From: a virus
Lineage: Duplodnaviria > Heunggongvirae > Uroviricota > Caudoviricetes
Length of the DNA stretch: 43,003 bases
Virus record (IMG/VR): IMGVR_UViG_641522624_000003
Strand: one strand, 5' to 3'
Shown: positions 1,027-16,628 of the stretch, one piece after another
Layout: each line of letters begins with the position of its first letter
Position numbering within the stretch: the stretch's first letter is position 1
The notes under the pieces: generated by a model
Told to the model about the DNA's origin: nothing
Seen by the model: only the letters and a program-made list of their open reading frames with translations
Databases searched by the model: none
Position numbers and translations under genes: made by a program

Positions 1027-1063
1027 CTTGGAATTACTTGGAATATTTTCTTGGAATATTTTC
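1027..1063. repeat. Short direct repeats between tRNA and int (3x CTTGGAAT; tandem 13-bp TTGGAATATTTTC x2); candidate integrase arm-type binding sites of attL
   Basis: Repeats read directly at 1027-1034, 1037-1044, 1050-1057, with tandem 13-mers at 1038-1050 and 1051-1063, immediately 3' of the int stop codon. Confidence 0.4.
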
Positions 1064-2059
1064 AGGTAACGGGACATCAAGTGTTGGTGAAACTTTAACC
1101 TTCCTGTCATAGATTAGCACTTGCCCTTCGGTTTTGTGACCAGAGAAAAGTTGCTTATCCCGGCTGCTTCCTTCATAGTCTGAAATTCCTTTCGCCTTCA
1201 GATCATGAAAGGTGAAGTCGGTTAAAATACCTGAAATTTTTCCAGCACGATTTCTTGCATCTACCCACATTTCGTTAAAGCCTTTGTACATATATCGGTT
1301 GCCGTATTGATTGCTGATCACATAGGCAGATTTTGGTAACTGTTTTGCTTTTTCGATCGCTGCCTGTAATCGTGGACTCCATGCTTTTATCTGTTTTTTT
1401 CCGGTTTTCCCTTGCTGGATGAATATCCCGTCGTTTCCAATCTGTTCCCATTTCAGCGATAACACATCGGAAACCCTCGCTGCACACAGATAGGCAATTT
1501 CCATTGCGATAAAAACAGGAAGAGGTGCAACGCTTAATACTGCCTGGTATTCTTTGTCGGTTACATATCGTTCGCGGTTTTTGGCCTTGAATTTACTTAC
1601 ACCTGCACATGGGTTAGCCTTCACGTACCCTCGCTCATACCCCCAACTGTAAACACGGGACATACTGCTTTTTTCATGGTTGGCTTGCGTTTTACTCTGC
1701 TCCCCTCTTTTGTCCATGTATCGACGGATGTGTTCTGGTTTTATGGAATCCGCTGGTACCTTACCGAATACGGCAAGCAACTTTTTTTGATGTTGCAGAT
1801 AATCTTTTTGTGTTCTTGGACTAAGGTCACTGTAATAGGCGCTGGCGAGGAATTTTTCCCACAAGCGACCGAATGTCATTGCACGATCGCGATTATTTAC
1901 AGTTTCCTCATACTTTTTCCATAAAGCAGCTAAACCATCCTTGATGGCGGTTAGTGTGACAGATTCTCTGGATGTTGGTTTCCATACATAACTATATTTA
2001 TTTGGGTATACATTTGGAGGTAATTTTTCGTGTTCAGGATTTTTCCTTCGTCTTCCCAT
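1034..2059 (-). CDS. int: Tyrosine-type phage integrase
   Basis: ORF track 341 aa; C-terminal catalytic region with R..HxxR..Y pattern (FTFHDLKAKGISDY...GHKTEGQVLIYDRK); sits next to a tRNA gene and an excisionase-like ORF. Confidence 0.85.
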   Translation of the reverse strand: MGRRRKNPEHEKLPPNVYPNKYSYVWKPTSRESVTLTAIKDGLAALWKKYEETVNNRDRAMTFGRLWEKFLASAYYSDLSPRTQKDYLQHQKKLLAVFGKVPADSIKPEHIRRYMDKRGEQSKTQANHEKSSMSRVYSWGYERGYVKANPCAGVSKFKAKNRERYVTDKEYQAVLSVAPLPVFIAMEIAYLCAARVSDVLSLKWEQIGNDGIFIQQGKTGKKQIKAWSPRLQAAIEKAKQLPKSAYVISNQYGNRYMYKGFNEMWVDARNRAGKISGILTDFTFHDLKAKGISDYEGSSRDKQLFSGHKTEGQVLIYDRKVKVSPTLDVPLPENIPRKYSK

Positions 2060-5401: not shown

Positions 5402-5459
5402 AAAAAGGGCGGCAGAGCAGTCACGGAGTAAAACTGATACCGCCAAACGTCACCAGAAA
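5402..5459 (-). ncRNA. dicF: DicF small regulatory RNA
   Basis: Minus-strand sequence TTTCTGGTGACGTTTGGCGGTATCAGTTTTACTCCGTGACTGCTCTGCCGCCCTTTTT matches my memory of DicF including its terminal hairpin and U-tail; located between ydfC and dicB. Confidence 0.8.
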
Positions 5460-6930: not shown

Positions 6931-6981
6931 ATTTAGATATCTTAATAACCCTTGACTTGAGATTCCTTGAATGATTACTAT

Positions 6982-7007: not shown

Positions 7008-7235
7008 ATGTTTAAATCAGACGTAATTAATTTTTATGGGACGAAAGCCAAAGTAGCGAAAGCTGCTGGTGTTGATCCATCTGCTGTTTCTCAATGGGGG
7101 GAACTGGTTCCTGAAGGTCGCGCGATGCGCCTGCAAGAGGCATCCGGCGGGGAACTTCAGTACGACCCCAAAGTTTATGACGAATATCGTAAGGCAAAGC
7201 GGGCGGGGCGGTTGAACAATGAAAATCACCCCTGA
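7008..7235 (+). CDS. dicC: DicC-like Cro-type regulator
   Basis: Product contains LVPEGRAMRLQEASGGELQYDPKVYDEYRKAKRAGRLNNEN, recalled as DicC-like; start taken at the internal ATG of track ORF 6981..7235. Confidence 0.7.
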   Translation: MFKSDVINFYGTKAKVAKAAGVDPSAVSQWGELVPEGRAMRLQEASGGELQYDPKVYDEYRKAKRAGRLNNENHP

Positions 7236-7770
7236 ACAGGTTTGTGAGGCTCTGGATGCCTGGGTATGTCGACCAGGAATGACACAGGAGCAAGCGACGA
7301 TATTAATCACGGAAGCATTCTGGGCTCTGAAAGAACGCCCGAACATCGATGTTCAACGCGTCACGTTTAATGATGGCGAGGTTGATCAACGGGCGCTGGG
7401 CGTTAACCGGGTGAAGATATTCGAACGCTGGAAAGCTATCGACACCAGGGATAAGCGGAAAAAATTCACGGCGCTGATTCCGGCAATTATGGAGGCTATC
7501 CGAATTAGTGATTTCAGGTTGTATCGTGAGATCAGTGATGGAAAAAGCATTACGTACATGATCGCCGGATTAAACAAAGAATATGGCGATGTGGTGGAGT
7601 CCGGGCTGCTTTTTGCGGATCCAGCTGTTGTGGAACGTGAGACTGACGAGCTTATAGAAAAAGCTATTGCTTTCAAGCATGCGTATCGTCAGCAATATCA
7701 ATATTACTTTGCAGATAAACAAATGTCTGCCAGGGGTTTGTATGAGTATCGATGCACTACGATGGGCTAA
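7219..7770 (+). CDS. YdaT-like phage regulatory protein (putative)
   Basis: 183-aa ORF after the cro-like gene; segment KIFERW...ALIPAIMEAI resembles my recollection of YdaT-family proteins; a CII-type role is possible by position. Confidence 0.4.
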   Translation: MKITPEQVCEALDAWVCRPGMTQEQATILITEAFWALKERPNIDVQRVTFNDGEVDQRALGVNRVKIFERWKAIDTRDKRKKFTALIPAIMEAIRISDFRLYREISDGKSITYMIAGLNKEYGDVVESGLLFADPAVVERETDELIEKAIAFKHAYRQQYQYYFADKQMSARGLYEYRCTTMG

Positions 7771-8782
7771 AAAGGTGAAAACCGGCAGTTCATCCAGTAA
7801 GTCTGTATTGACCTGGCTTGCTGATATGTGCGGTGCCGATTTGTGTGCATACCCGTCTGTATCTGCACTGGCAGAAGTAACGGAACTAAACAAAAAGACT
7901 GTGCAGGACAGCTTACGACACCTGATGGAGATTGGGTTAATTGTTGATACCGGTGAGAGAAAAGGCAGAACAAAGCAAATTGTGGTGTACCGACTTATCG
8001 GTGTAGAAGAAAGTGTTGCCGAGCCTGAATACACCCAAAAACGGGAGTCTTTAAAGGTGGGTAAAATTGGTGCTGTTAATAAAAACAGTACCGAAAATGG
8101 TTATGTTTCAGCACAAAACAGACCCAAAAACGGAACTCTTAGCTGCATGGAAAATAACCAAAGACACCCAAATTTTCCATCAAAGACACCCAAAAACGGA
8201 TCACGGAACCCAAAGGAACCCAAAGATCTAAACCCCACACATAACGCACGCGAGAGTGCTCCGACCAGTGAGCAGGAAGTTTTGTCGTTACAGGCAGCAC
8301 CCCTTGTATTCCTGGATGGCCTGAGCGAACCCATCGGAAAATTTCCGATGACCGATAGCTGGTATCCGTCACGGGATTTTCGACGACGGGCTGCGTTGTG
8401 GGGGATGGCTTTGCCGGAGACAGAATTTACACCTGCTGAACTTGCCGCCTTCCGGGACTACTGGGCAGCGGAGGGGAAAGTGTTTACTCAGATTCAGTGG
8501 GAGCAGAAATTCGCCCGTCACGTAAATCACGTCAGGGCGCAGGTTAAACCAGTCAGCAAGGGGGTAAACCATGCAGCAGCACCAGGTGGCACCGCATCAC
8601 GGGCAGTTCAGGAAATTCGGGCAGCACGTGAGCAGTGGGAACGTGAAAACGGATTTATCAGCGACGGAAACGGTCTGGAAGCTGTGGGAACTCATGGGGG
8701 AGGTTTATTCGAACCGCTGGACCCAGAAGAACGGGGCCGCACCTTCGAAGCTCTGGATTGCACAGATTGGCGCGATGACTGA
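7742..8782 (+). CDS. Replication initiator (O-like): N-terminal HTH domain, C-terminal DnaT-like domain
   Basis: Start at MSIDALRWAKK within track ORF 7667..8782; HTH segment SVSALAEVTELNKKTVQDSLRHLMEIGLI; iteron-like repeats lie inside the gene; C-terminal region FTPAELAAFRDYWAAEGKVF resembles DnaT-like domains. Confidence 0.6.
   Translation: MSIDALRWAKKVKTGSSSSKSVLTWLADMCGADLCAYPSVSALAEVTELNKKTVQDSLRHLMEIGLIVDTGERKGRTKQIVVYRLIGVEESVAEPEYTQKRESLKVGKIGAVNKNSTENGYVSAQNRPKNGTLSCMENNQRHPNFPSKTPKNGSRNPKEPKDLNPTHNARESAPTSEQEVLSLQAAPLVFLDGLSEPIGKFPMTDSWYPSRDFRRRAALWGMALPETEFTPAELAAFRDYWAAEGKVFTQIQWEQKFARHVNHVRAQVKPVSKGVNHAAAPGGTASRAVQEIRAAREQWERENGFISDGNGLEAVGTHGGGLFEPLDPEERGRTFEALDCTDWRDD
8030..8226. 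repeat. Iteron-like repeats (ACCCAAA core, about 6 copies; tandem GAACCCAAAG x2), putative replication origin inside the initiator gene
   Basis: Direct repeats at about 8031-8044, 8120-8134, 8162-8172, 8183-8200, 8206-8215 and 8216-8225. Confidence 0.5.
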
Positions 8783-9236
8783 GCAGCAAATCCGACAGGT
8801 CTGCCGCCAGTGCATGGACCGCTGCCGGGCGGGTGAAACATGGCCTCCGGACCTGGCTGAGTTTGTGGCGCTGATTTCAGAAAGCGGGGCCAATCCATTT
8901 GGCCTGACGGTGGATGCTGTGATGGAGGAGTACCGCCGCTGGCGTGATGAGTCCTGGCGATATGACGGAAGCGACAAATATCCGTGGCCTCAGCCTGTGC
9001 TGTACCACATCTGCCTCGAAATGCGTACCAGAGGGATTGAGCGCCAGATGACGCAGGGTGAGTTAAAACGACTTGCGGAACGGCAACTGACGAAATGGGC
9101 AAAGCATGTTGGTAACGGGATGAGTGTTCCGCCAGTGCGACGACAACTGGAAGGGGCGAAACACCCGCAAGGGCCAACGCCAATTGAACGGCTGAAACAG
9201 GAATACGAACGCCGGAAGGCAGCTGGTTTTATTTGA
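8571..9236 (+). CDS. Replication protein P-like (helicase-loader family, lambda P C-terminal-like)
   Basis: 221-aa ORF with strong SD (AAGGGGG) 5 nt before ATG 8571; C-terminal region (PPDLAEFVAL...YPWPQPVLYHIC...MTQGELKRLAERQL) parallels recalled lambda P motifs; no Walker A motif. Confidence 0.5.
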   Translation: MQQHQVAPHHGQFRKFGQHVSSGNVKTDLSATETVWKLWELMGEVYSNRWTQKNGAAPSKLWIAQIGAMTEQQIRQVCRQCMDRCRAGETWPPDLAEFVALISESGANPFGLTVDAVMEEYRRWRDESWRYDGSDKYPWPQPVLYHICLEMRTRGIERQMTQGELKRLAERQLTKWAKHVGNGMSVPPVRRQLEGAKHPQGPTPIERLKQEYERRKAAGFI

Positions 9237-9269
9237 ATCTGAGAAACGATTTTGTCGGAGGAAATTTTA

Positions 9270-10040
9270 ATGGAAACCGTATTTGACGCACTGAAAGCAA
9301 TGGGAAAAACCACATCGGTAGAACTGGCCGCGCGACTTGATATCAGTCGTGAAGAGGTTCTCAACGAGCTGTGGGAACTCAAAAGAAATGGCGTCGTTGA
9401 TAAAACTGGTCACACCTGGTTTCTGGCTGGCGAAGGTGAATCCCGGGTAACCGAAGAGCGGCCAGTAAAATCTGAAGCACAGGATATGCTGACCGGAGAG
9501 GTCGAACAAAAAGTTACCGCAGACATGATGATTGAGTTTATCGGTCAGGATGGTGCTAAAACGTGTGAGGAACTGGCGGGTAAGTTCGGCGTCAGTACTC
9601 GCAAGGTTGCCTCCACGCTGGCGGTGGTAACCGCAATGGGGCGGCTGGCACGCGTTAATCAGAACGGTAAATTTCGTTACTGCATGCCGGGCGATAATTT
9701 ACCAGCAGAGCCGAAAGCCGCGCTGGTAACGGAAAGTGATGGTAAGGCCTTTCCTCAGCCAGCAGGTGCTGCGTTACCAGTCCGGGAAGCCGCAACACAG
9801 GAAGAAATTAAAACAGAAACTGTGGCGGACATTGTGCAGCCGTTGCCATCGTTTACCGAAACGCAAGCAGATGAGCTGATTTTTCCGTCCCTTCGCAGGG
9901 CAAACCTGGCGCTGCGCAGGGCGAAAAGTGATGTTCAGAGGTGGGAGCGAGTCTGCGCCGCGCTGCGGGAGCTGAACAAGCACCGGGATATTGTTCGACA
10001 GATTACTGATTCTTCCCGCCGTGTTGTATCGGAAAAGTGA
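9270..10040 (+). CDS. Hypothetical phage protein with two winged-helix-like segments
   Basis: Track ORF 9252..10040; ATG 9270 is preceded by a GGAGG SD; two HTH-like stretches ([29 protein letters not shown] and [30 protein letters not shown]). Confidence 0.45.
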
Positions 10041-10055
10041 TTGCCGGAGGCGCTT

Positions 10056-10448
10056 ATGGCAAAAGTATTTACACCAGAAGAGCGGGAAGAAGTGAAGGCG
10101 CGCATTGTGGAATTCGTGCGCCTGAGCGGACGAGAAACTTTTCGACAACTGGCAGATAAAACGGGTGTCAGTAAGACCGCTATTCGTCGTTTATCTGGTG
10201 CGCTTGCGGCCAGTGGTGATGTCTGGCTCTCTGGTTGCGGGGTATTTCCATCAGAGCAGGCGTATCGCGTATGGCGTAAGACACCGGAGAAGGCTGCTGA
10301 CCCGACACTGATTCGAAAGTTACCTGACGGAGAAATACGTCGTTACAACAGACGGCAGAACATAATTTGTCGTGAGTGCCGCCAGAGCGAAGTTATGCAG
10401 CGTGTGCTGGCGTTCTATCGGGGAAACTTTCAGGAGGTGATGGAGTGA
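10056..10448 (+). CDS. Hypothetical wHTH-like protein
   Basis: Track ORF 10041..10448; ATG 10056 with GGAGG SD; HTH-like RETFRQLADKTGVSKTAIRRLSGALAASG; CxxC pair near the C-terminus. Confidence 0.4.
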   Translation: MAKVFTPEEREEVKARIVEFVRLSGRETFRQLADKTGVSKTAIRRLSGALAASGDVWLSGCGVFPSEQAYRVWRKTPEKAADPTLIRKLPDGEIRRYNRRQNIICRECRQSEVMQRVLAFYRGNFQEVME

Positions 10449-10741
10449 GGGTCAGAGTTTATATTGCCGGTCCAATGACGGGATATGAAAATTTCAACCG
10501 TGAGGCGTTTCACAAGGCGGAAGAGGAACTGAAACGGGAAGGGCATACCGTCTTAAACCCGGCAGTACTTCCGGACGGGCTGACACAGCCGCACTACATG
10601 GATATTTGCATGGCAATGATTCGTTGTGTGGATGCGATTTACATGCTGAATGGCTGGCAGCGGTCAGCGGGCGCTAAGGCAGAGCTGGCACTGGCGGAGA
10701 AACTGGGGCATGCAGTGATTTATCAGGAGGTGGCTCAATGA
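10445..10741 (+). CDS. DUF4406-like (nucleoside 2-deoxyribosyltransferase-like fold) protein
   Basis: GTG start overlapping the upstream stop (GTGATGGAGTGA) with an AGGAGG SD; product VYIAGPMTGYENF...GW.RS.GA.AE.A.A.K.GH.V matches my recollection of the DUF4406 pattern. Confidence 0.5.
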   Translation: MRVRVYIAGPMTGYENFNREAFHKAEEELKREGHTVLNPAVLPDGLTQPHYMDICMAMIRCVDAIYMLNGWQRSAGAKAELALAEKLGHAVIYQEVAQ

Positions 10742-11199
10742 GAGAGGTTAACTATGAGGCGCTTCGTGAGGCAGCACAAAACTATCAGTCGACGCTGGCG
10801 TGGTATCAGGCTATCCCGGACAGCCCAAATGCTGAACGGGATTGTGATGCGGCTCTTGCTGCGTTTAAGCGTCACATCCGTCATCGGGAAGCGGATATTA
10901 TCGCTGATTTGCTGGATGGACTGGAAGAAGCAAAATCACAACTCAAAGAGCAGCGTGAGTATTACGAAGGCGTTATCTCTGATGGGAGCAAGCGTATTGC
11001 TGAACTGGAAGCGCGGGAAGTTCAATTACCGACTCGCTACGACCTTCGATATGGACACCCGATAAATGCAGATGAGCGACATGTCATGATACCTAAAGAA
11101 AATGGCAGTTGGCTTTACCTGATTGACCTAGAACACGCATTACGCGTCTCTGGCATTCGCATCAAAGGAGAGGAGCATGGAAATAAAACCAGAGGATGA
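10738..11199 (+). CDS. Hypothetical phage protein
   Basis: 153-aa ORF translationally coupled (ATGA overlap) to the upstream gene; no recognisable domain. Confidence 0.4.
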   Translation: MREVNYEALREAAQNYQSTLAWYQAIPDSPNAERDCDAALAAFKRHIRHREADIIADLLDGLEEAKSQLKEQREYYEGVISDGSKRIAELEAREVQLPTRYDLRYGHPINADERHVMIPKENGSWLYLIDLEHALRVSGIRIKGEEHGNKTRG

Positions 11200-11533
11200 G
11201 TTAAGCAATATCGTTTTATTTCCGGTAAAAGAGGATGACCCTCGTAATCAGGTTAATTTTCTTTATGAGCCATCGGAAAGACCATATTGTCATCACGCCT
11301 CTGTCCGGGTTGACGAAAAAGAGCGTCAGGTCCGCTGTAAAATCTGCGGTGCAGTTGTGGAGCCATTTGACTGGATGCTCTCTGTGGCGAAAAGAGAAAC
11401 CAGACTGGCAGATGATGTAAGGCTCTTGCGTCAGGAGGAGCGGGAAAGGCGAAAAAATATAGAAAAGCTAATTCAGATTGAGCGTAACGCGAAAGCGCGG
11501 ATACGCAGGGCGACAAAATCCAGAACTGAATAA
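11177..11533 (+). CDS. Hypothetical protein with CxxC zinc-ribbon-like motif and basic C-terminal tail
   Basis: 118-aa ORF; C..H...CKICGAVVEP then an Arg/Lys-rich helix. Confidence 0.4.
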   Translation: MEIKPEDELSNIVLFPVKEDDPRNQVNFLYEPSERPYCHHASVRVDEKERQVRCKICGAVVEPFDWMLSVAKRETRLADDVRLLRQEERERRKNIEKLIQIERNAKARIRRATKSRTE

Positions 11534-11626
11534 TTAAATTTAGCTCTGTTAAAAATTTAATCCTTAACCGGAGGGATTTCTGCACCCTCAGAACATCAGG
11601 AGGCCGCCCGAAAGGGCGGTAGTTAA

Positions 11627-11809
11627 ATGCGAAAGTTTAAAATAATTATTGAAACGGGAATAGCCGGTGGAGATTTCGAGGATGAATTCGAAGTGGATGA
11701 TGATGCAACACCAGATGAAATACAGGATGAAGCTAAAGATATTTTCTTTAACTACTGCAATTACTCATACCACGAAATAAAAGACGAAGAGGAAGAACAA
11801 AATGGCTGA
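11627..11809 (+). CDS. Small highly acidic protein (60 aa)
   Basis: Track ORF; Asp/Glu-rich (FEDEFEVDDDATPDEIQDEAKD...KDEEEEQNG); preceded by a GAAA-tetraloop hairpin at about 11600-11618. Confidence 0.4.
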   Translation: MRKFKIIIETGIAGGDFEDEFEVDDDATPDEIQDEAKDIFFNYCNYSYHEIKDEEEEQNG

Positions 11810-11978
11810 TTTTGGTTCAACTAAATATAACGCCAGTTTTGAAGAATGGCATGAACTGTTAATGGATTATGCAGAGTTACGCGGTGGAAGTGCCGCTGAT
11901 GCTGAAGCATGGCGTGATGATTATGAAGCAGGGAAAACACCGGTCGAAGCATATTGTGATGAGTGGGGCGATGAATGA
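11802..11978 (+). CDS. Small acidic protein (58 aa)
   Basis: Hand-translated MADFGSTKYNASFEEWHELLMDYAELRGGSAADAEAWRDDYEAGKTPVEAYCDEWGDE; overlaps neighbours by ATGA-type junctions at both ends; below the ORF-track cutoff. Confidence 0.4.
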   Translation: MADFGSTKYNASFEEWHELLMDYAELRGGSAADAEAWRDDYEAGKTPVEAYCDEWGDE

Positions 11979-12490
11979 GCGAGATTAATTATCAGGAAGG
12001 GCATGAAAAGGCAGGGCAGGCAAAACCAGTGGCATGGCGATATCGCTACGTGAAAAAAGGCGTTACGGACTTTCAGGAGAATCTGTGGGTTGGTGACTGG
12101 AAATATGTACCGACAAAAGAGGATTGCAACGACAGGCCGAACTATGAAATTCAGGCCTTATTCGCTGCCCCGCCAGTTCCGGTGACATCAGAAGGACTGG
12201 TTAAAGCCGTGCGCTTTTATGAACAGGTAAAGCGTGAGAATCCACCAGTCGAAACAGGAGTATGGAAAGATGCTGTTGATTGGGTTCTCAAAGAGGCCTG
12301 CTGTGCTGTCATTCTGGGTAAAGCCGACAATCCATTAGCATCCAGTAACCAAGTTGGCGAATTAACAATGTGGGTTAAACGACTGGTCAGTCAACTGAAA
12401 AAAGCTAATCCAGACTGCAAATTACCGGAGAAGGCGATGGACTACCTGAAGCGGAACGAACTGATAAGCGCGGAGGATGTTTTGCGATGA
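11975..12490 (+). CDS. Hypothetical phage protein
   Basis: 171-aa track ORF, coupled to upstream and downstream ORFs. Confidence 0.4.
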   Translation: MSEINYQEGHEKAGQAKPVAWRYRYVKKGVTDFQENLWVGDWKYVPTKEDCNDRPNYEIQALFAAPPVPVTSEGLVKAVRFYEQVKRENPPVETGVWKDAVDWVLKEACCAVILGKADNPLASSNQVGELTMWVKRLVSQLKKANPDCKLPEKAMDYLKRNELISAEDVLR

Positions 12491-12570
12491 CCTGGCCTGA
12501 AGCATTCACAACGGTAGGAATTGCAATAGCGGTGGCGCTGGTGGTGTATTCGATTTGCCACTGGATGTGA
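12487..12570 (+). CDS. Small hydrophobic peptide (27 aa, single predicted TM helix)
   Basis: ATGA overlap with the stop of the upstream ORF; MTWPEAFTTVGIAIAVALVVYSICHWM. Confidence 0.3.
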   Translation: MTWPEAFTTVGIAIAVALVVYSICHWM

Positions 12571-12732
12571 GGTATTAAAAAAACGCCCCGCACACAGACG
12601 TTGAGCGCCTGAGATGTGGGGATAGGGAGTTAGTTAAATAGTTATACAACAATACCTGATTTTATATTGAAGCAAGAAATAGGTTGCTACATATTGAACC
12701 ATGCGCATGTACGTCAAATATGGGAGGTCATC

Positions 12733-12822
12733 GTGCTGGTTCTGAAATGTGCGCTGGCTATTGCGGCAGTAATGGCAATTTATTGTCTTGTTATCGTTCT
12801 TATGAATCACCTCTCTGATTGA
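12733..12822 (+). CDS. Small hydrophobic peptide (29 aa), toxin-like, with overlapping 14-codon leader ORF
   Basis: GTG start 5 nt after GGGAGG; product (M)LVLKCALAIAAVMAIYCLVIVLMNHLSD; upstream ORF MRMYVKYGRSSCWF (12701-12745) overlaps the start; AT-rich promoter-like region upstream. Confidence 0.3.
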   Translation: MLVLKCALAIAAVMAIYCLVIVLMNHLSD

Positions 12823-13033
12823 TTTTATATTGGCGAGGTGACGTGAGTTAAGTAGAATTGCTGCGGGTGCTTGAGGCTATCTGCCTCGGGCATGAACACC
12901 AACGGCAGATAGAGAAAAGCCCCAGTTAACATTACGCGTCCTGCAAGACGTTTAACATTAATCTGAGGCCCAATCTATGCTTCACAAACGTAGGTTAGCC
13001 TCTTACGTGCCGAAAGGCAAGGAGAAGCAGGCT

Positions 13034-13189
13034 ATGAAGCAGCAAAAGGCGATGTTAATCGCCCTGATCGTCATCTGTTTAACCGTCATAGTGACGGCAC
13101 TGGTAACGAGGAAAGACCTCTGCGAGGTACGAATCCGAACCGGCCAGACGGAGGTCGCTGTCTTCACAGCTTACGAACCTGAGGAGTAA
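13034..13189 (+). CDS. hok: Hok/Gef-family type I toxin (51 aa)
   Basis: Product MKQQKAMLIALIVICLTVIVTALVTRKDLCEVRIRTGQTEVAVFTAYEPEE carries the Hok/Gef signature (TM helix, conserved C, EVAAF-like motif), recalled as HokD/RelF-like; an in-frame upstream ATG at 12977 gives the 70-aa track ORF. Confidence 0.8.
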   Translation: MKQQKAMLIALIVICLTVIVTALVTRKDLCEVRIRTGQTEVAVFTAYEPEE

Positions 13190-14016: not shown

Positions 14017-15072
14017 GTGCGGGTATTACTTCGACCTGTTCTGGTACCGGAACTCGGGCTGGTGATCGTTAAGCCGGGCCGTGAATCCATGCCGGTATTC
14101 CACAATACCCGGGTACTGGTGGAGCCGGAACCGAAAAGCATGCGCGGTCTGCCGTCCGGAGTCGTCCCTGCCGTTCGCCAGCCGCTGGCGGAGGATAAAT
14201 CATTACTGCCATTTTTCAGCGATGAGCGGGTGATTCGTGCTGCTGGCGGCGCTGGGGCACTGTCTGACTGGCTGTTGCGTCATGTCAAATCCTGCCAGTG
14301 GCCTCATGGTGACTATCATCACAGTGAAATCGTCATACATCGTTACGGTACCGGCGCGATGGTGTTGTGCTGGCACTGCGACAACCAGTTGCGTGACCAG
14401 ACATCCGAATCACTCGGGCAACTTGCTCATCAAAACCTGTCAGCATGGATGATTGACGTCATACGCCATGCAATGAATGGCACGCAGGAGCGGGAATTGT
14501 CGCTGGCTGAATTATCCTGGTGGGCGGTCTGCAATCAGGTGGCGGACGCGCTTCCGGAGGCAGTATTACGTCGTTCTCTGGGGTTACGTGCGGAAAAAAT
14601 CCGCTCCTTGTACCGCGAAAGCGACATCGTACCGGGAGAGCAGACCGCCACCAGCATACTGAAGCAGCGCACAAAAAATCTTGCGCCGTTGCCTCATGCC
14701 CACCAGCAAAACCCGCCACAGGAAAAGACGGTGGTCAGCATTGCCGTTGATCCGGAGTCACCGGCTCAGTATCTCCAGCGCCAGAAACCACAACGGGAAG
14801 AGATGCCTGTATACACGCGTTGGGTAAAAACGCAGAAATGCATGACGTGCGGTAATCAGGCAGATGATCCGCATCACATCATTGGTCATGGACTGGGAGG
14901 GATGGGAACAAAGGCTGATGATTTGTTTGTTATTCCGCTGTGCCGTAAATGTCATAACGAACTGCACGCCGGGGTAAAAGATTTTGAAGAAAAACACGGC
15001 AGCCAGCTGTTGTTGCTGATTCGTTTTTTAATGCACGCGAGAAATTCGGGTGTCCTGAAGTGGAAAGCATGA
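14017..15072 (+). CDS. DUF968-family protein (YdfU-like) with C-terminal HNH-like zinc-finger motif
   Basis: 351-aa ORF; C-terminal CMTCGNQADDPHHIIGHGLGG...LCRKCHNELH; recalled as YdfU-like by size and position upstream of rusA and Q. Confidence 0.55.
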   Translation: MRVLLRPVLVPELGLVIVKPGRESMPVFHNTRVLVEPEPKSMRGLPSGVVPAVRQPLAEDKSLLPFFSDERVIRAAGGAGALSDWLLRHVKSCQWPHGDYHHSEIVIHRYGTGAMVLCWHCDNQLRDQTSESLGQLAHQNLSAWMIDVIRHAMNGTQERELSLAELSWWAVCNQVADALPEAVLRRSLGLRAEKIRSLYRESDIVPGEQTATSILKQRTKNLAPLPHAHQQNPPQEKTVVSIAVDPESPAQYLQRQKPQREEMPVYTRWVKTQKCMTCGNQADDPHHIIGHGLGGMGTKADDLFVIPLCRKCHNELHAGVKDFEEKHGSQLLLLIRFLMHARNSGVLKWKA

Positions 15073-15438
15073 ATGACTGAACGCATAGAATTTGTTTTGC
15101 CTTACCCGCCGACGGTGAATACCTACTGGCGACGTCATGGCAATACGTATTTCATCTCGGAAGCCGGAAAGCGTTATCGCCGTGATGTGGCGCTAATTGT
15201 TCGCCAGCAGCGGCTGAAATTAAGCCTGTCCGGAAGGCTGGCGATAAAGATTATTGCAGAGCCACCGGATAAGCGCCGCCGCGACCTGGACAATATCCTG
15301 AAGGCACCACTGGATGCGCTGACGCATGCCGGACTACTTATAGACGACGAGCAGTTTGATGAAATCAATATTGTGCGCGGTCAGCTCGTTCCTGGTGGGC
15401 GGCTGGGGATAAAAATCACAGAACTGGAGTGCGCATGA
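15073..15438 (+). CDS. rusA: Holliday-junction resolvase RusA
   Basis: 121-aa ORF with the RusA-family pattern (LPYPPTVNTYWR...DKRRRDLDNILKAPLDALTHAGL..DDEQ). Confidence 0.8.
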   Translation: MTERIEFVLPYPPTVNTYWRRHGNTYFISEAGKRYRRDVALIVRQQRLKLSLSGRLAIKIIAEPPDKRRRDLDNILKAPLDALTHAGLLIDDEQFDEINIVRGQLVPGGRLGIKITELECA

Positions 15439-16124
15439 ATAACCAGTATTTACAGTTTGTGCGTGAGCAGCTCATTATCGCCACCGCTGATTTGAGTGGG
15501 GCAACAAAAGGTCAGCTTGAAGCCTGGCAAGAGAATGCCATGTTCGATACAGGGCGTTACAGGCGAAAAAAAATCCGGTACCGCGATGAAGTGACTGGAA
15601 AAATGATAACGCGGGATAATCCACCAATCCCGGGAAAGCAATCGCTGGCGAAGGGGACGTCAATTCCTCTGGTCAGTCCGGTTGAGTTTTCGACATCATC
15701 GTGGCGGCGGGCTGTTCTGTCTCTTGAAGAACATCATAAAGCCTGGTTGTTGTGGTGTTACAGCGGGAGTATTTGTTGGGAATATCAGATCGCGATAACA
15801 CAGTGGGCGTGGAATGAATTTAATACTCAATCCGGTACCAGAAAAATTGCAGGGAAAACGCAGGAACGCCTGAAAAAATTAATCTGGCTGGCGGCGCAGG
15901 CAGTAAAAGCAGAACTTTTTGGTGGGGAAGGTTATGAATACCAGGAGCTGGCATTACTGGCGGGAGTGACAACTAAAAACTGGTCCAAAACATTTACTCG
16001 TCACTGGGTTGCAATGAAACACATTTTTCACCGACTTGATAGTGAGGCTTTATTGTTTGTAATGAGAACACGTTCAAAACAAAAGGCGGCATTTTCAAAG
16101 CAAAGTATTGCAAAAGTAGATTGA
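15429..16124 (+). CDS. Late-gene antiterminator Q-like protein
   Basis: 231-aa ORF immediately upstream of a consensus-like promoter, a short terminator and the lysis cassette; position and size typical of lambdoid Q. Confidence 0.6.
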   Translation: MRMNNQYLQFVREQLIIATADLSGATKGQLEAWQENAMFDTGRYRRKKIRYRDEVTGKMITRDNPPIPGKQSLAKGTSIPLVSPVEFSTSSWRRAVLSLEEHHKAWLLWCYSGSICWEYQIAITQWAWNEFNTQSGTRKIAGKTQERLKKLIWLAAQAVKAELFGGEGYEYQELALLAGVTTKNWSKTFTRHWVAMKHIFHRLDSEALLFVMRTRSKQKAAFSKQSIAKVD

Positions 16125-16318: not shown

Positions 16319-16394
16319 GGCCCTTTAGCTCAGTGGTGAGAGCGAGCGACTCATAATCGCCAGGTCGCTGGTTCAAATCCAGCAAGGGCCACCA
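16319..16394 (+). tRNA. tRNA with anticodon CAU (Met or lysidine-dependent Ile2)
   Basis: 76-nt cloverleaf: acceptor GGCCCTT/AAGGGCC, D stem GCTC/GAGC, anticodon loop CTCATAA, T-loop GCTGG-TTCAAAT-CCAGC, 3' ACCA. Confidence 0.7.
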
Positions 16395-16395
16395 G

Positions 16396-16472
16396 CCGCC
16401 ACTAGCTCATCAGGAAAGAGCGTCAACCCTTTAAGTTGAGTGTGCGAGGTTCGAGTCCCCGGTGGCGGTCCA
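16396..16472 (+). tRNA. tRNA with atypical anticodon loop CCTTTAA (C at position 33); nominal anticodon UUU, Arg(UCU)-like backbone; isotype uncertain
   Basis: 77-nt cloverleaf: acceptor CCGCCAC/GTGGCGG, D stem GCTC/GAGC, anticodon stem TCAAC/GTTGA, T-loop CGAGG-TTCGAGT-CCCCG, 3' TCCA. Confidence 0.5.
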
Positions 16473-16474
16473 GT

Positions 16475-16550
<76 letters not shown>

Positions 16551-16553
16551 TAT

Positions 16554-16628
<75 letters not shown>

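Follow-up and report, generated by a model that had tools for sequence, protein, structure and literature searches.

Eight mosaic cargo genes between P and hokD in a Rac/Qin-like lambdoid prophage of Escherichia coli

Known counterparts of the accessory early genes of lambdoid prophages are the ren–nin and exo-xis regions of phage lambda, whose architecture has been known for decades. Roadblocks placed across the lambda nin region by CRISPR interference are polar on Q; the genes are dispensable, the nin region is deletable, and ren is dispensable for plaque formation if Q is supplied (PMC10695390). Ren has been described as "likely involved in DNA replication", and two-hybrid assays show it to interact with O and with the Rex proteins (bioRxiv 10.1101/2021.04.19.439022). 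Ea22, of the exo-xis region, favours lysogeny and is tetrameric via its coiled coil, while its C-terminal domain, solved by nuclear magnetic resonance, differs among homologues and is thought to bind a host partner (PMC7093339, PMC10834534). A gene of the K-12 Rac prophage, ydaW, was found to be a prophage "blocker", its over-expression relieving the retron-Sen2 toxin RcaT (bioRxiv 10.1101/2020.06.22.160242). Here, we analyze a gene block at positions 9270–12570 of IMG/VR virus record IMGVR_UViG_641522624_000003, a stretch of 43,003 nucleotides referred to as the window. The window is a lambdoid prophage whose early region resembles E. coli prophages of Rac/Qin type, and the block lies between its replication genes and Q. 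A first-pass annotation, made from the letters alone, had proposed a candidate anti-defence or host-takeover block.

Our analysis finds eight small genes, all under purifying selection, that form a mosaic of at least two modules, g1–g3 and g4–g8, in place of the coherent block first described. They are most probably a mixed set of dispensable lytic-phase modulators and not one dedicated system.

A variable cargo slot between P and hokD

The block and the two edges of the slot that it occupies are listed below, with the gene starts that RefSeq gives for the prophage of E. coli AR_0013, which is 98% identical.

8775–9236, plus strand: lambda-P-like helicase loader, left edge of the cargo slot (PF06992 E 5e-16, phrog_109; "replication protein P" in RefSeq)
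9270–10040, plus strand: g1, YdaW/DUF1627 protein, 256 amino acids (aa) (PF07789, phrog_630)
10056–10448, plus strand: g2, DUF977 protein, 130 aa (PF06163, phrog_142)
10445–10741, plus strand: g3, DUF4406 protein, 98 aa, GTG start (PF14359, phrog_355)
10738–11199, plus strand: g4, Ead/Ea22-like protein, 153 aa (PF13935)
11177–11533, plus strand: g5, predicted zinc knuckle/ribbon plus basic helix, 118 aa (phrog_1621)
11627–11809, plus strand: g6, acidic DUF7167 protein, 60 aa (PF23768, phrog_1997)
11802–11978, plus strand: g7, acidic protein, 58 aa (phrog_519)
11975–12490, plus strand: g8, modular protein, 171 aa (phrog_660)
12487–12570, plus strand: possible ninth open reading frame (ORF), a 27-aa hydrophobic peptide, MTWPEAFTTVGIAIAVALVVYSICHWM, read from the sequence
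12865–13189, plus strand: sok/hokD type I toxin–antitoxin locus, right edge of the cargo slot (RF01794 113 bits; PF01848 E 3e-23)

The total is eight solid genes on the same strand (9270–12490), at a coding density of about 97%, and one doubtful one. A chain of small same-strand genes had been described correctly, but with about ten members in place of the eight or nine found; its end coordinate, 12570, is accounted for by the 27-aa ORF. The junctions from g1 to g8 measure +15, −4 (GTGA), −4 (ATGA), −23, +93, −8 and −4 (ATGA) nt, and the 27-aa ORF is ATGA-coupled to g8 (−4). All junctions but one are thus overlaps or gaps of under 20 nt, as first reported, the +93 nt gap being the sole exception. 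In the Shiga toxin (Stx) phage ArgO145 the 27-aa ORF is intact, and in E. coli AJ1 the corresponding DNA is 96% identical; phage 689R5 has a frameshift in it, AR_0013 lacks it and RefSeq does not annotate it. Its substitutions are too few to judge selection.

Distribution was surveyed in 5426 complete E. coli genomes. Pieces of the block occur in 3760 of these and the prophage O/P module in 1252, whereas the whole block, at 98% identity, is found in only 181. The content of the slot from P to hokD in five related prophages is as follows.

AR_0013: block as in the window
O157:H7 ATCC 43890: DUF1627, a small ORF, a fimbrial pseudogene and the paa adhesin (7871–9323 of the locus)
French isolate: DUF1627, a HAD hydrolase, DUF4406, a truncated Ea22 gene and one more gene
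Isolate AJ1: DUF1627, DUF977, g5, g6, g7 and other genes
Bovine isolate: DUF1627, another DNA-binding protein, DUF4406, DUF7167, and an opposite-strand Ser/Thr kinase and PP2C phosphatase

P–hokD is a variable cargo slot, and it is to this slot that the accessory position noted earlier between the replication genes and Q corresponds. DUF1627 is constant after P (in all six loci of the prophage family, g1 directly follows P) and all else is exchangeable. The right edge is formed by sok/hokD in all related prophages examined, and pseudogenes and truncations occur in the sister loci. Because a kinase/phosphatase pair and the paa adhesin are found there, the slot also accepts morons of host-interaction or defence type. 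The kinase/phosphatase pair lies at 8876–10370 of the locus in E. coli OkiPb01698.

Parts of the block also occur outside the slot. In ArgO145, the g5–g6–g7 run is found in the same order at 94–97% nucleotide identity, with Ea22-like genes on both sides, in the leftward early operon, between recombination-type genes and int, upstream of int and a few kb from it. An Edwardsiella P22-like prophage has a DUF4406 gene beside Ead_Ea22 and Eai, again in a leftward operon. No Ea22-like gene is annotated in the leftward arm of the near-identical AR_0013 prophage. Relative to AR_0013, g1–g5 are 99.4–100% identical, and g6, g7 and g8 are 95%, 94.8% and 92.4% identical. The 93-nt gap from g5 to g6 (11534–11626) is a recombination joint, because identity to AR_0013 drops across it.

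A different kind of junction connects g4 and g5. The last 17 aa of g4 (..IRIKGEEHGNKTRG) are a conserved linker that overlaps the start of g5, matches two tiny PHROGs of its own and is also present in gp18 of ArgO145, where it closes an Ea22-like gene that is much longer. The 23-nt overlap of the two genes (11177–11199) is present in the window, AR_0013 and ArgO145 and missing from phage 689R5 and E. coli AJ1. Together, the overlap and the last 17 codons of g4 act as a fixed linker that joins variable Ea22-type genes to g5. Exchange also takes place within g8, the segments of which recombine freely: residues ~15–115 and 108–171 recur in proteins of many lengths, with 108–171 being C-terminal in them.

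Families, predicted folds and conservation of the products

The family labels given in the first-pass annotation hold, namely two winged helix-turn-helix (HTH) proteins (DUF1627 and DUF977), a DUF4406 protein, a zinc-ribbon protein and two acidic proteins. Its statement that functions are unassigned overstates the novelty of the block, which is annotated in RefSeq and has only one of its eight genes outside the named Pfam or PHROG families. Searches of PDB sequences with all eight products gave no meaningful match.

The g1 product (PF07789, E 1.2e-97) has two winged-helix domains followed by a C-terminal helical region. It shares 60% identity with K-12 Rac YdaW over aa 1–154 (E 4e-63) and, judged by sequence, is the full-length orthologue of that protein. 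Its second winged helix resembles that of g2 and weakly matches the Ren PHROG. K-12 ydaW is located at 7753–8313 of the locus examined, and some phage records name a gene of this neighbourhood "putative YdaW family protein". The suggestion in some phage records that K-12 YdaW is a DUF977 protein is wrong; by profile, YdaW itself is DUF1627, a truncated orthologue of g1.

The winged-helix protein g2 matches PF06163 (DUF977) with E 2e-41 and covers the whole profile of phrog_142, "Ren-like exclusion protein" (E 1.4e-43). BLASTP aligns it with lambda Ren at 29% identity (E 4e-9), and a C-terminal CRQSxxMxRVLAxY motif is common to both. Lambda Ren itself falls below the DUF977 Pfam model, the link being made by the PHROG profile and the pairwise alignment, which identify g2 as a homologue of Ren. 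Lambda Ren is associated with escape from Rex exclusion, and the name of the PHROG fits this link. The winged helices of g1 and g2 also gave weak, non-significant PDB matches to the Z-alpha domains, which bind Z-DNA or Z-RNA, of ADAR1, vaccinia E3L and PKZ; at E 0.07–0.9, these probably reflect generic winged-helix similarity and were set aside.

DUF4406 protein g3 matches PF14359 over the full length of the profile (E 9.9e-38; 128.9 bits against a 22-bit cut-off). Its AlphaFold2 (AF2) model, built from 30 homologues, has a mean predicted local distance difference test score (pLDDT) of 91.5. In Foldseek searches of the PDB, the top matches are nucleoside 2-deoxyribosyltransferases (NDTs), DNPH1/Rcl and the cytidine monophosphate (CMP) N-glycosidases MilB/BcmB, which make up almost all of the top 40. 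These matches have a probability of 1.00, E values of 6.5e-5 to 1e-3 and a template modelling (TM) score of ~0.75 over all 98 residues; the solved enzymes are 120–160 aa long, and about half of each is covered, with a TM score normalised to the target of 0.47–0.57. Viral fold matches carry the name deoxyribosyltransferase. The model thus predicts g3 to be a minimal NDT/DNPH1/MilB-type protein of flavodoxin-like fold and, because its best PDB matches are of this type, the NDT-like fold first claimed for the DUF4406 product was right. The protein is below the Pfam cut-off for PF05014 (13 versus 28.8 bits), and a profile search of PDB sequences with the DUF4406 alignment returned a single, spurious match.

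Y6, G9, R19, D53, S74, G76 and E80 of g3 are invariant in the 30 homologues, and E80 opens the helix after strand 4 in the model. Such a pattern would be seen if the Tyr/Asp/Glu catalytic set and the phosphate-binding loop were kept, and the Tyr, Asp, Glu and Ser-x-Gly of g3 would, by position in the fold, occupy places equivalent to those of the NDT, DNPH1 (Rcl) and MilB–BcmB superfamily. Viral relatives of g3 are fused to dATP/dGTP diphosphohydrolase-type and other hydrolase domains, and a HAD hydrolase adjoins DUF4406 in a sister prophage; because of these associations, g3 points to nucleotide-pool chemistry. DUF4406, which is conserved also in Vibrio, looks like a common phage nucleotide-metabolism enzyme.

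The Ead/Ea22-like g4 product scores 46.1 bits against PF13935, for which the gathering cut-off is 27 bits. It aligns with lambda Ea22 over aa 1–108, comprising the N-terminus and the coiled coil (BLASTP E 8e-17), and has the motif QREYYEGVISDGSKRIA in common with it. The alignment ends at residue 108, g4 lacking the lambda-type C-terminal dimeric alpha/beta domain, and PDB sequences gave no match. The adjoining g5 product (phrog_1621, E 2e-56) has four residues, C38, H40, C54 and C57, that are invariant in 38 Enterobacterales homologues, down to 45% identity. Its AF2 model (pLDDT 74) consists of a beta-hairpin at 43–54 and a 55-residue helix at 63–117 that is basic and nearly invariant. From the conservation of the presumptive metal ligands, g5 appears to be a C-H-C-C zinc knuckle or ribbon protein. 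Its fold search returned nothing significant, the best match being a TFIIB ribbon at E 0.16, and the Pfam TFIIB ribbon match is under the cut-off (21.6 versus 29 bits).

Both g6 and g7 are very acidic, each with an isoelectric point of 4.05. The g6 product matches PF23768 (DUF7167; E 1e-14) and phrog_1997 (E 3e-30), and g7 matches the C-terminal part of phrog_519 (E 9e-23, profile positions 76–137 of 143) and nothing in Pfam. The g8 product belongs to an unnamed PHROG, phrog_660 (E 5e-73), and begins with an Ea22-type N-terminal tag, MSEINYQ. We rejected g8 as an Ea22 paralogue, the match being limited to its first 16–23 residues. Matches of g8 at 1e-5 to artificial-intelligence-designed TIM barrels in the PDB contained zero qualifying stretches and were ignored.

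Selection was assessed by comparing each gene with diverged copies in other loci and calculating the ratio of non-synonymous to synonymous changes (pN/pS). Constraint is strongest on g5 (0.02–0.05), g6 (0.03–0.11) and g3 (0.06–0.12), followed by g7 (0.06–0.19 against four full-length copies) and g4 (~0.15). Values are 0.19–0.49 for g8 (0.19–0.28 in the four longer alignments) and 0.34–0.43 for g1 and g2. All eight genes are under purifying selection.

Expression signals, proposed role and alternatives

Two sequence elements bear on expression of the block.

6952–6981, plus strand: pR-like promoter, 5' of cro (consensus scan, TTGACT-18-TACTAT)
11598–11620, plus strand: AGGAGG and an 18-nt GC hairpin (GCCGCCC-GAAA-GGGCGGT), inside the 93-nt gap

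The same consensus scan, a weak form of evidence, found no plus-strand promoter-like site inside the block and no strong plus-strand terminator before 13258. We infer a single transcript from the pR-like promoter through the block to Q; the block would then be active during the lytic cycle and off in the lysogen. GGAGG-type Shine-Dalgarno sequences are recognisable at seven of the eight starts. The GC hairpin is followed after 6 nt by the start codon of g6. Four other loci have the element unchanged, among them ArgO145 with its different upstream gene; in a fifth, the loop changes from GAAA to GGCA and the closing G.T pair to A.T, with the stem kept. We considered whether the hairpin is a terminator and rejected this because it is without a T-run; it also travels with g6 and lies between Shine-Dalgarno and start codon. 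It is probably a structured translation-initiation region of g6, and may bring the Shine-Dalgarno sequence close to the AUG.

Taken together, the block would be the delayed-early accessory part of a rightward pR-type operon in a Rac/Qin-like lambdoid prophage of E. coli. It would occupy the place of lambda's ren and nin, with RNA polymerase from pR crossing it to reach Q and head-to-tail packing letting ribosomes pass from gene to gene. The first set, g1–g3, would supply a replication-linked winged-helix pair with some anti-exclusion capacity and a nucleotide N-glycosidase-type enzyme, g3, whose most likely reaction is base cleavage or exchange on a (deoxy)nucleoside monophosphate. The second set, g4–g8, perhaps with the 27-aa peptide, would be an Ead/Ea22-type developmental module. 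Their products may tune replication and the choice between lysis and lysogeny, and some may protect against exclusion by a resident prophage or abortive infection. Every biochemical activity and phenotype named here is one that we infer, and several points weigh against so broad an account. No functional clue emerged for g5 to g8, and the pR read-through is predicted from the consensus scan. The catalytic residues of g3 are assigned by fold position and invariance. The ydaW result comes from an over-expression screen with the truncated K-12 allele, and the preprint is silent on ydaW among the 11 blockers that were re-tested (bioRxiv 10.1101/2020.06.22.160242).

The anti-defence role first proposed for the block is supported, through homology only, for at most two of the eight genes (g2 through Ren and g1 through YdaW). 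Were the block a dedicated counter-defence island, most or all of the eight proteins would each neutralise a host or prophage defence: a Ren-type protein against Rex, a YdaW-type protein against retron toxins, acidic mini-proteins that counter restriction or BREX by mimicking DNA, and a DUF4406 protein that degrades or mimics a nucleotide immune signal or an NDT-type effector. The variable slot and its fast gene turnover agree with such an island, as do the Ren homology of g2, the retron-blocker screen result for the orthologue of g1, and the two very acidic proteins of 58–60 aa. The kinase/phosphatase pair carried by the slot in a sister prophage and the adhesin in O157:H7 point the same way, and so does the NDT fold, which is shared with nucleotide-processing immune effectors, including those of retrons. 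However, pN/pS values of 0.02–0.12 for g3, g5 and g6 are unlike the rapid diversification typical of many inhibitors, the published phenotype of Ea22 is developmental and pro-lysogenic, and the fusion of DUF4406 to nucleotide pyrophosphatase domains in other phages suggests metabolism. Literature searches by family name, DUF name and RefSeq accession returned no characterised anti-defence match (no anti-defence profile scan was made), and no functional or anti-defence study beyond Ren and the ydaW screen. None of the genes was counted as matching a PADLOC model at E<0.001. PADLOC-DB gave weak winged-helix matches for g1 and g2 (CARF/Csa3 HTH parts, E 1e-5 to 0.05), one marginal match for g5 (E 0.033) and none for g3, g4, g6, g7 and g8; we discarded the PADLOC/NCBIfam leads for the eight products as generic winged-helix noise. 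On balance, we regard an island of this kind as unlikely. It is also quite improbable that g1–g3 are a counter-defence set against nucleotide-based abortive infection and that g6 and g7 add further inhibition, for instance by mimicking DNA. In such a set, the targets would be NDT-type retron toxins such as RcaT for g1 and Rex-type exclusion for g2, and g3 would be either an inactive-looking effector mimic or a hydrolase of a nucleotide-derived immune signal.

Mixed lytic-phase modulators must also be weighed against two explanations that do not involve defence. The winged helices of g1 and g2 could bind at or near the origin or O–P–DnaB, with g3 perhaps adjusting the deoxynucleoside monophosphate pool, so that these genes would be accessory replication factors of the O/P module and only g4–g8 would be cargo. 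Such a role is suggested by the position of g1 after P in all six loci while the rest varies, by the similarity of its second winged helix to that of g2 and to the Ren PHROG, and by lambda ren, which overlaps P, has been linked to DNA replication and interacts with O in two-hybrid assays. Yet lambda ren is dispensable for plaques with Q supplied (PMC10695390), constraint in the block is weakest on g1 and g2 (pN/pS 0.34–0.43), and three of five sister loci lack g2 or have another gene in its place; neither a DNA-binding site nor an iteron turned up, none having been sought. We give this assignment little credence. Decaying or non-functional filler, kept since transcription must cross it to reach Q, would be in keeping with the deletion of the lambda nin region without plaque loss and with the pseudogenes and truncations of sister loci. 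But all eight genes are intact, with ribosome-binding sites, and several of their families are conserved across Enterobacterales, DUF4406 extending to Vibrio. That all eight are under purifying selection disposes of this explanation, which we consider scarcely credible.

Whether as modulators or otherwise, the genes form a block already known in kind and content, given its RefSeq labels, its wide occurrence and its lambda nin/exo-xis architecture. Among E. coli lambdoid prophages it is a commonplace and widespread element, and it matters little as it stands. Its value is that of a map, which tells the gene that always follows P (YdaW/DUF1627) apart from exchangeable cargo and shows an Ea22-type gene set moving between leftward and rightward early operons. 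Three strongly constrained products are the most worthwhile targets for wet-lab work, namely the DUF4406 enzyme, the zinc-ribbon/helix protein and DUF7167. If any of the three were a counter-defence factor, this would extend to E. coli and Shigella prophages in their thousands, Stx phages among them.

The surrounding prophage and comparison with known systems

Features of the prophage outside the slot are listed below.

1034–2059, minus strand: 341-aa ORF, integrase by position only
5407–5458, minus strand: DicF small RNA (sRNA) in the leftward early operon (Rfam 76.7 bits)
~7008–7235: cro, by homology with AR_0013
14017–16124, 3' of the block: DUF968/HNH, RusA and Q (nin-type functions)
15429–16124, 3' of the block: Q

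A tRNA-Ser(CGA) gene at 892–981 is likely the attachment site, because it adjoins the integrase-sized 341-aa ORF taken as the integrase. The leftward early genes encode a RecE-like exonuclease, DUF1482, dicB/DicF and a 135-aa HTH repressor; by homology, dicB is the neighbour of DicF, as in Qin-type prophages. The rightward early genes are cro and those for a YdaT-like protein, a DnaT-like initiator and the lambda-P-like loader. Four tRNA genes (Met, Lys, Thr and Gly) are clustered directly 3' of Q, in a tRNA stretch at 16319–16628. Between the block and sok/hok, 12571–12864 is unannotated. On its minus strand this interval has a terminator-like hairpin with a T-run (12602 to 12582) and a promoter-like site (12851 to 12822), and on its plus strand a small hydrophobic ORF of 51 aa (12667–12822). 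A small antisense transcript or a membrane peptide could be located there. The Pas sRNAs of prophages, which have been reported near DUF1627 genes, were considered for this unannotated stretch after g8 and rejected.

Among known systems, the P22-type "ea" region of an Edwardsiella prophage has DUF4406 two genes after Ead_Ea22, within an overlapping run of small genes. That region lies in a leftward operon, between RdgC and int, and its Eai, Rv2179c-like exonuclease and DUF4752 are absent here. The ydaS-ydaT-ydaU-ydaV-ydaW segment of K-12 Rac has the same layout as the window, with a cro-like gene, YdaT, replication genes and a DUF1627 protein. The replication genes differ, being DUF1376 YdaU and ATP-binding YdaV in K-12 Rac, and DnaT-like and P-like here. 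K-12 YdaW, of 186 residues, diverges past residue 154 and retains only positions 1–64 of the 155-position DUF1627 profile, and everything that would follow it is missing from K-12 Rac.

Two regions of lambda are relevant. To the exo-xis region the block is linked by g4, which is homologous to Ea22 in the N-terminus and coiled coil and is without the lambda C-terminal domain; no homologue of orf60a, orf61, orf63 or ea8.5 is among the family hits of the eight genes. The exo-xis module and that of ArgO145 belong to a leftward operon near int, whereas here the operon is rightward and follows the replication genes. From lambda ren–nin the block differs in gene content. None of g1–g8 is NinB, C, D, E, F, G, H or I by Pfam or PHROG and no NinB/NinG/Roi-type family is found among the eight, which is why the idea of accessory cargo survives. 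The Ren homologue is 34 aa longer than lambda Ren and is second after P, with g1 between, unlike lambda ren, which overlaps P. A hok/sok locus separates the block from DUF968/HNH, RusA and Q. In lambda, by the coordinates of its record, P/ren, ninB/C, C/D, D/E, E/F, F/G, G/H, H/I and I/Q overlap, with a gap only between ren and ninB. Like ren–nin, the block is an overlapping stop/start chain of dispensable-type small genes that includes a Ren homologue; both have the same P-to-Q position, and the expression of Q would depend on read-through here as it does in lambda.

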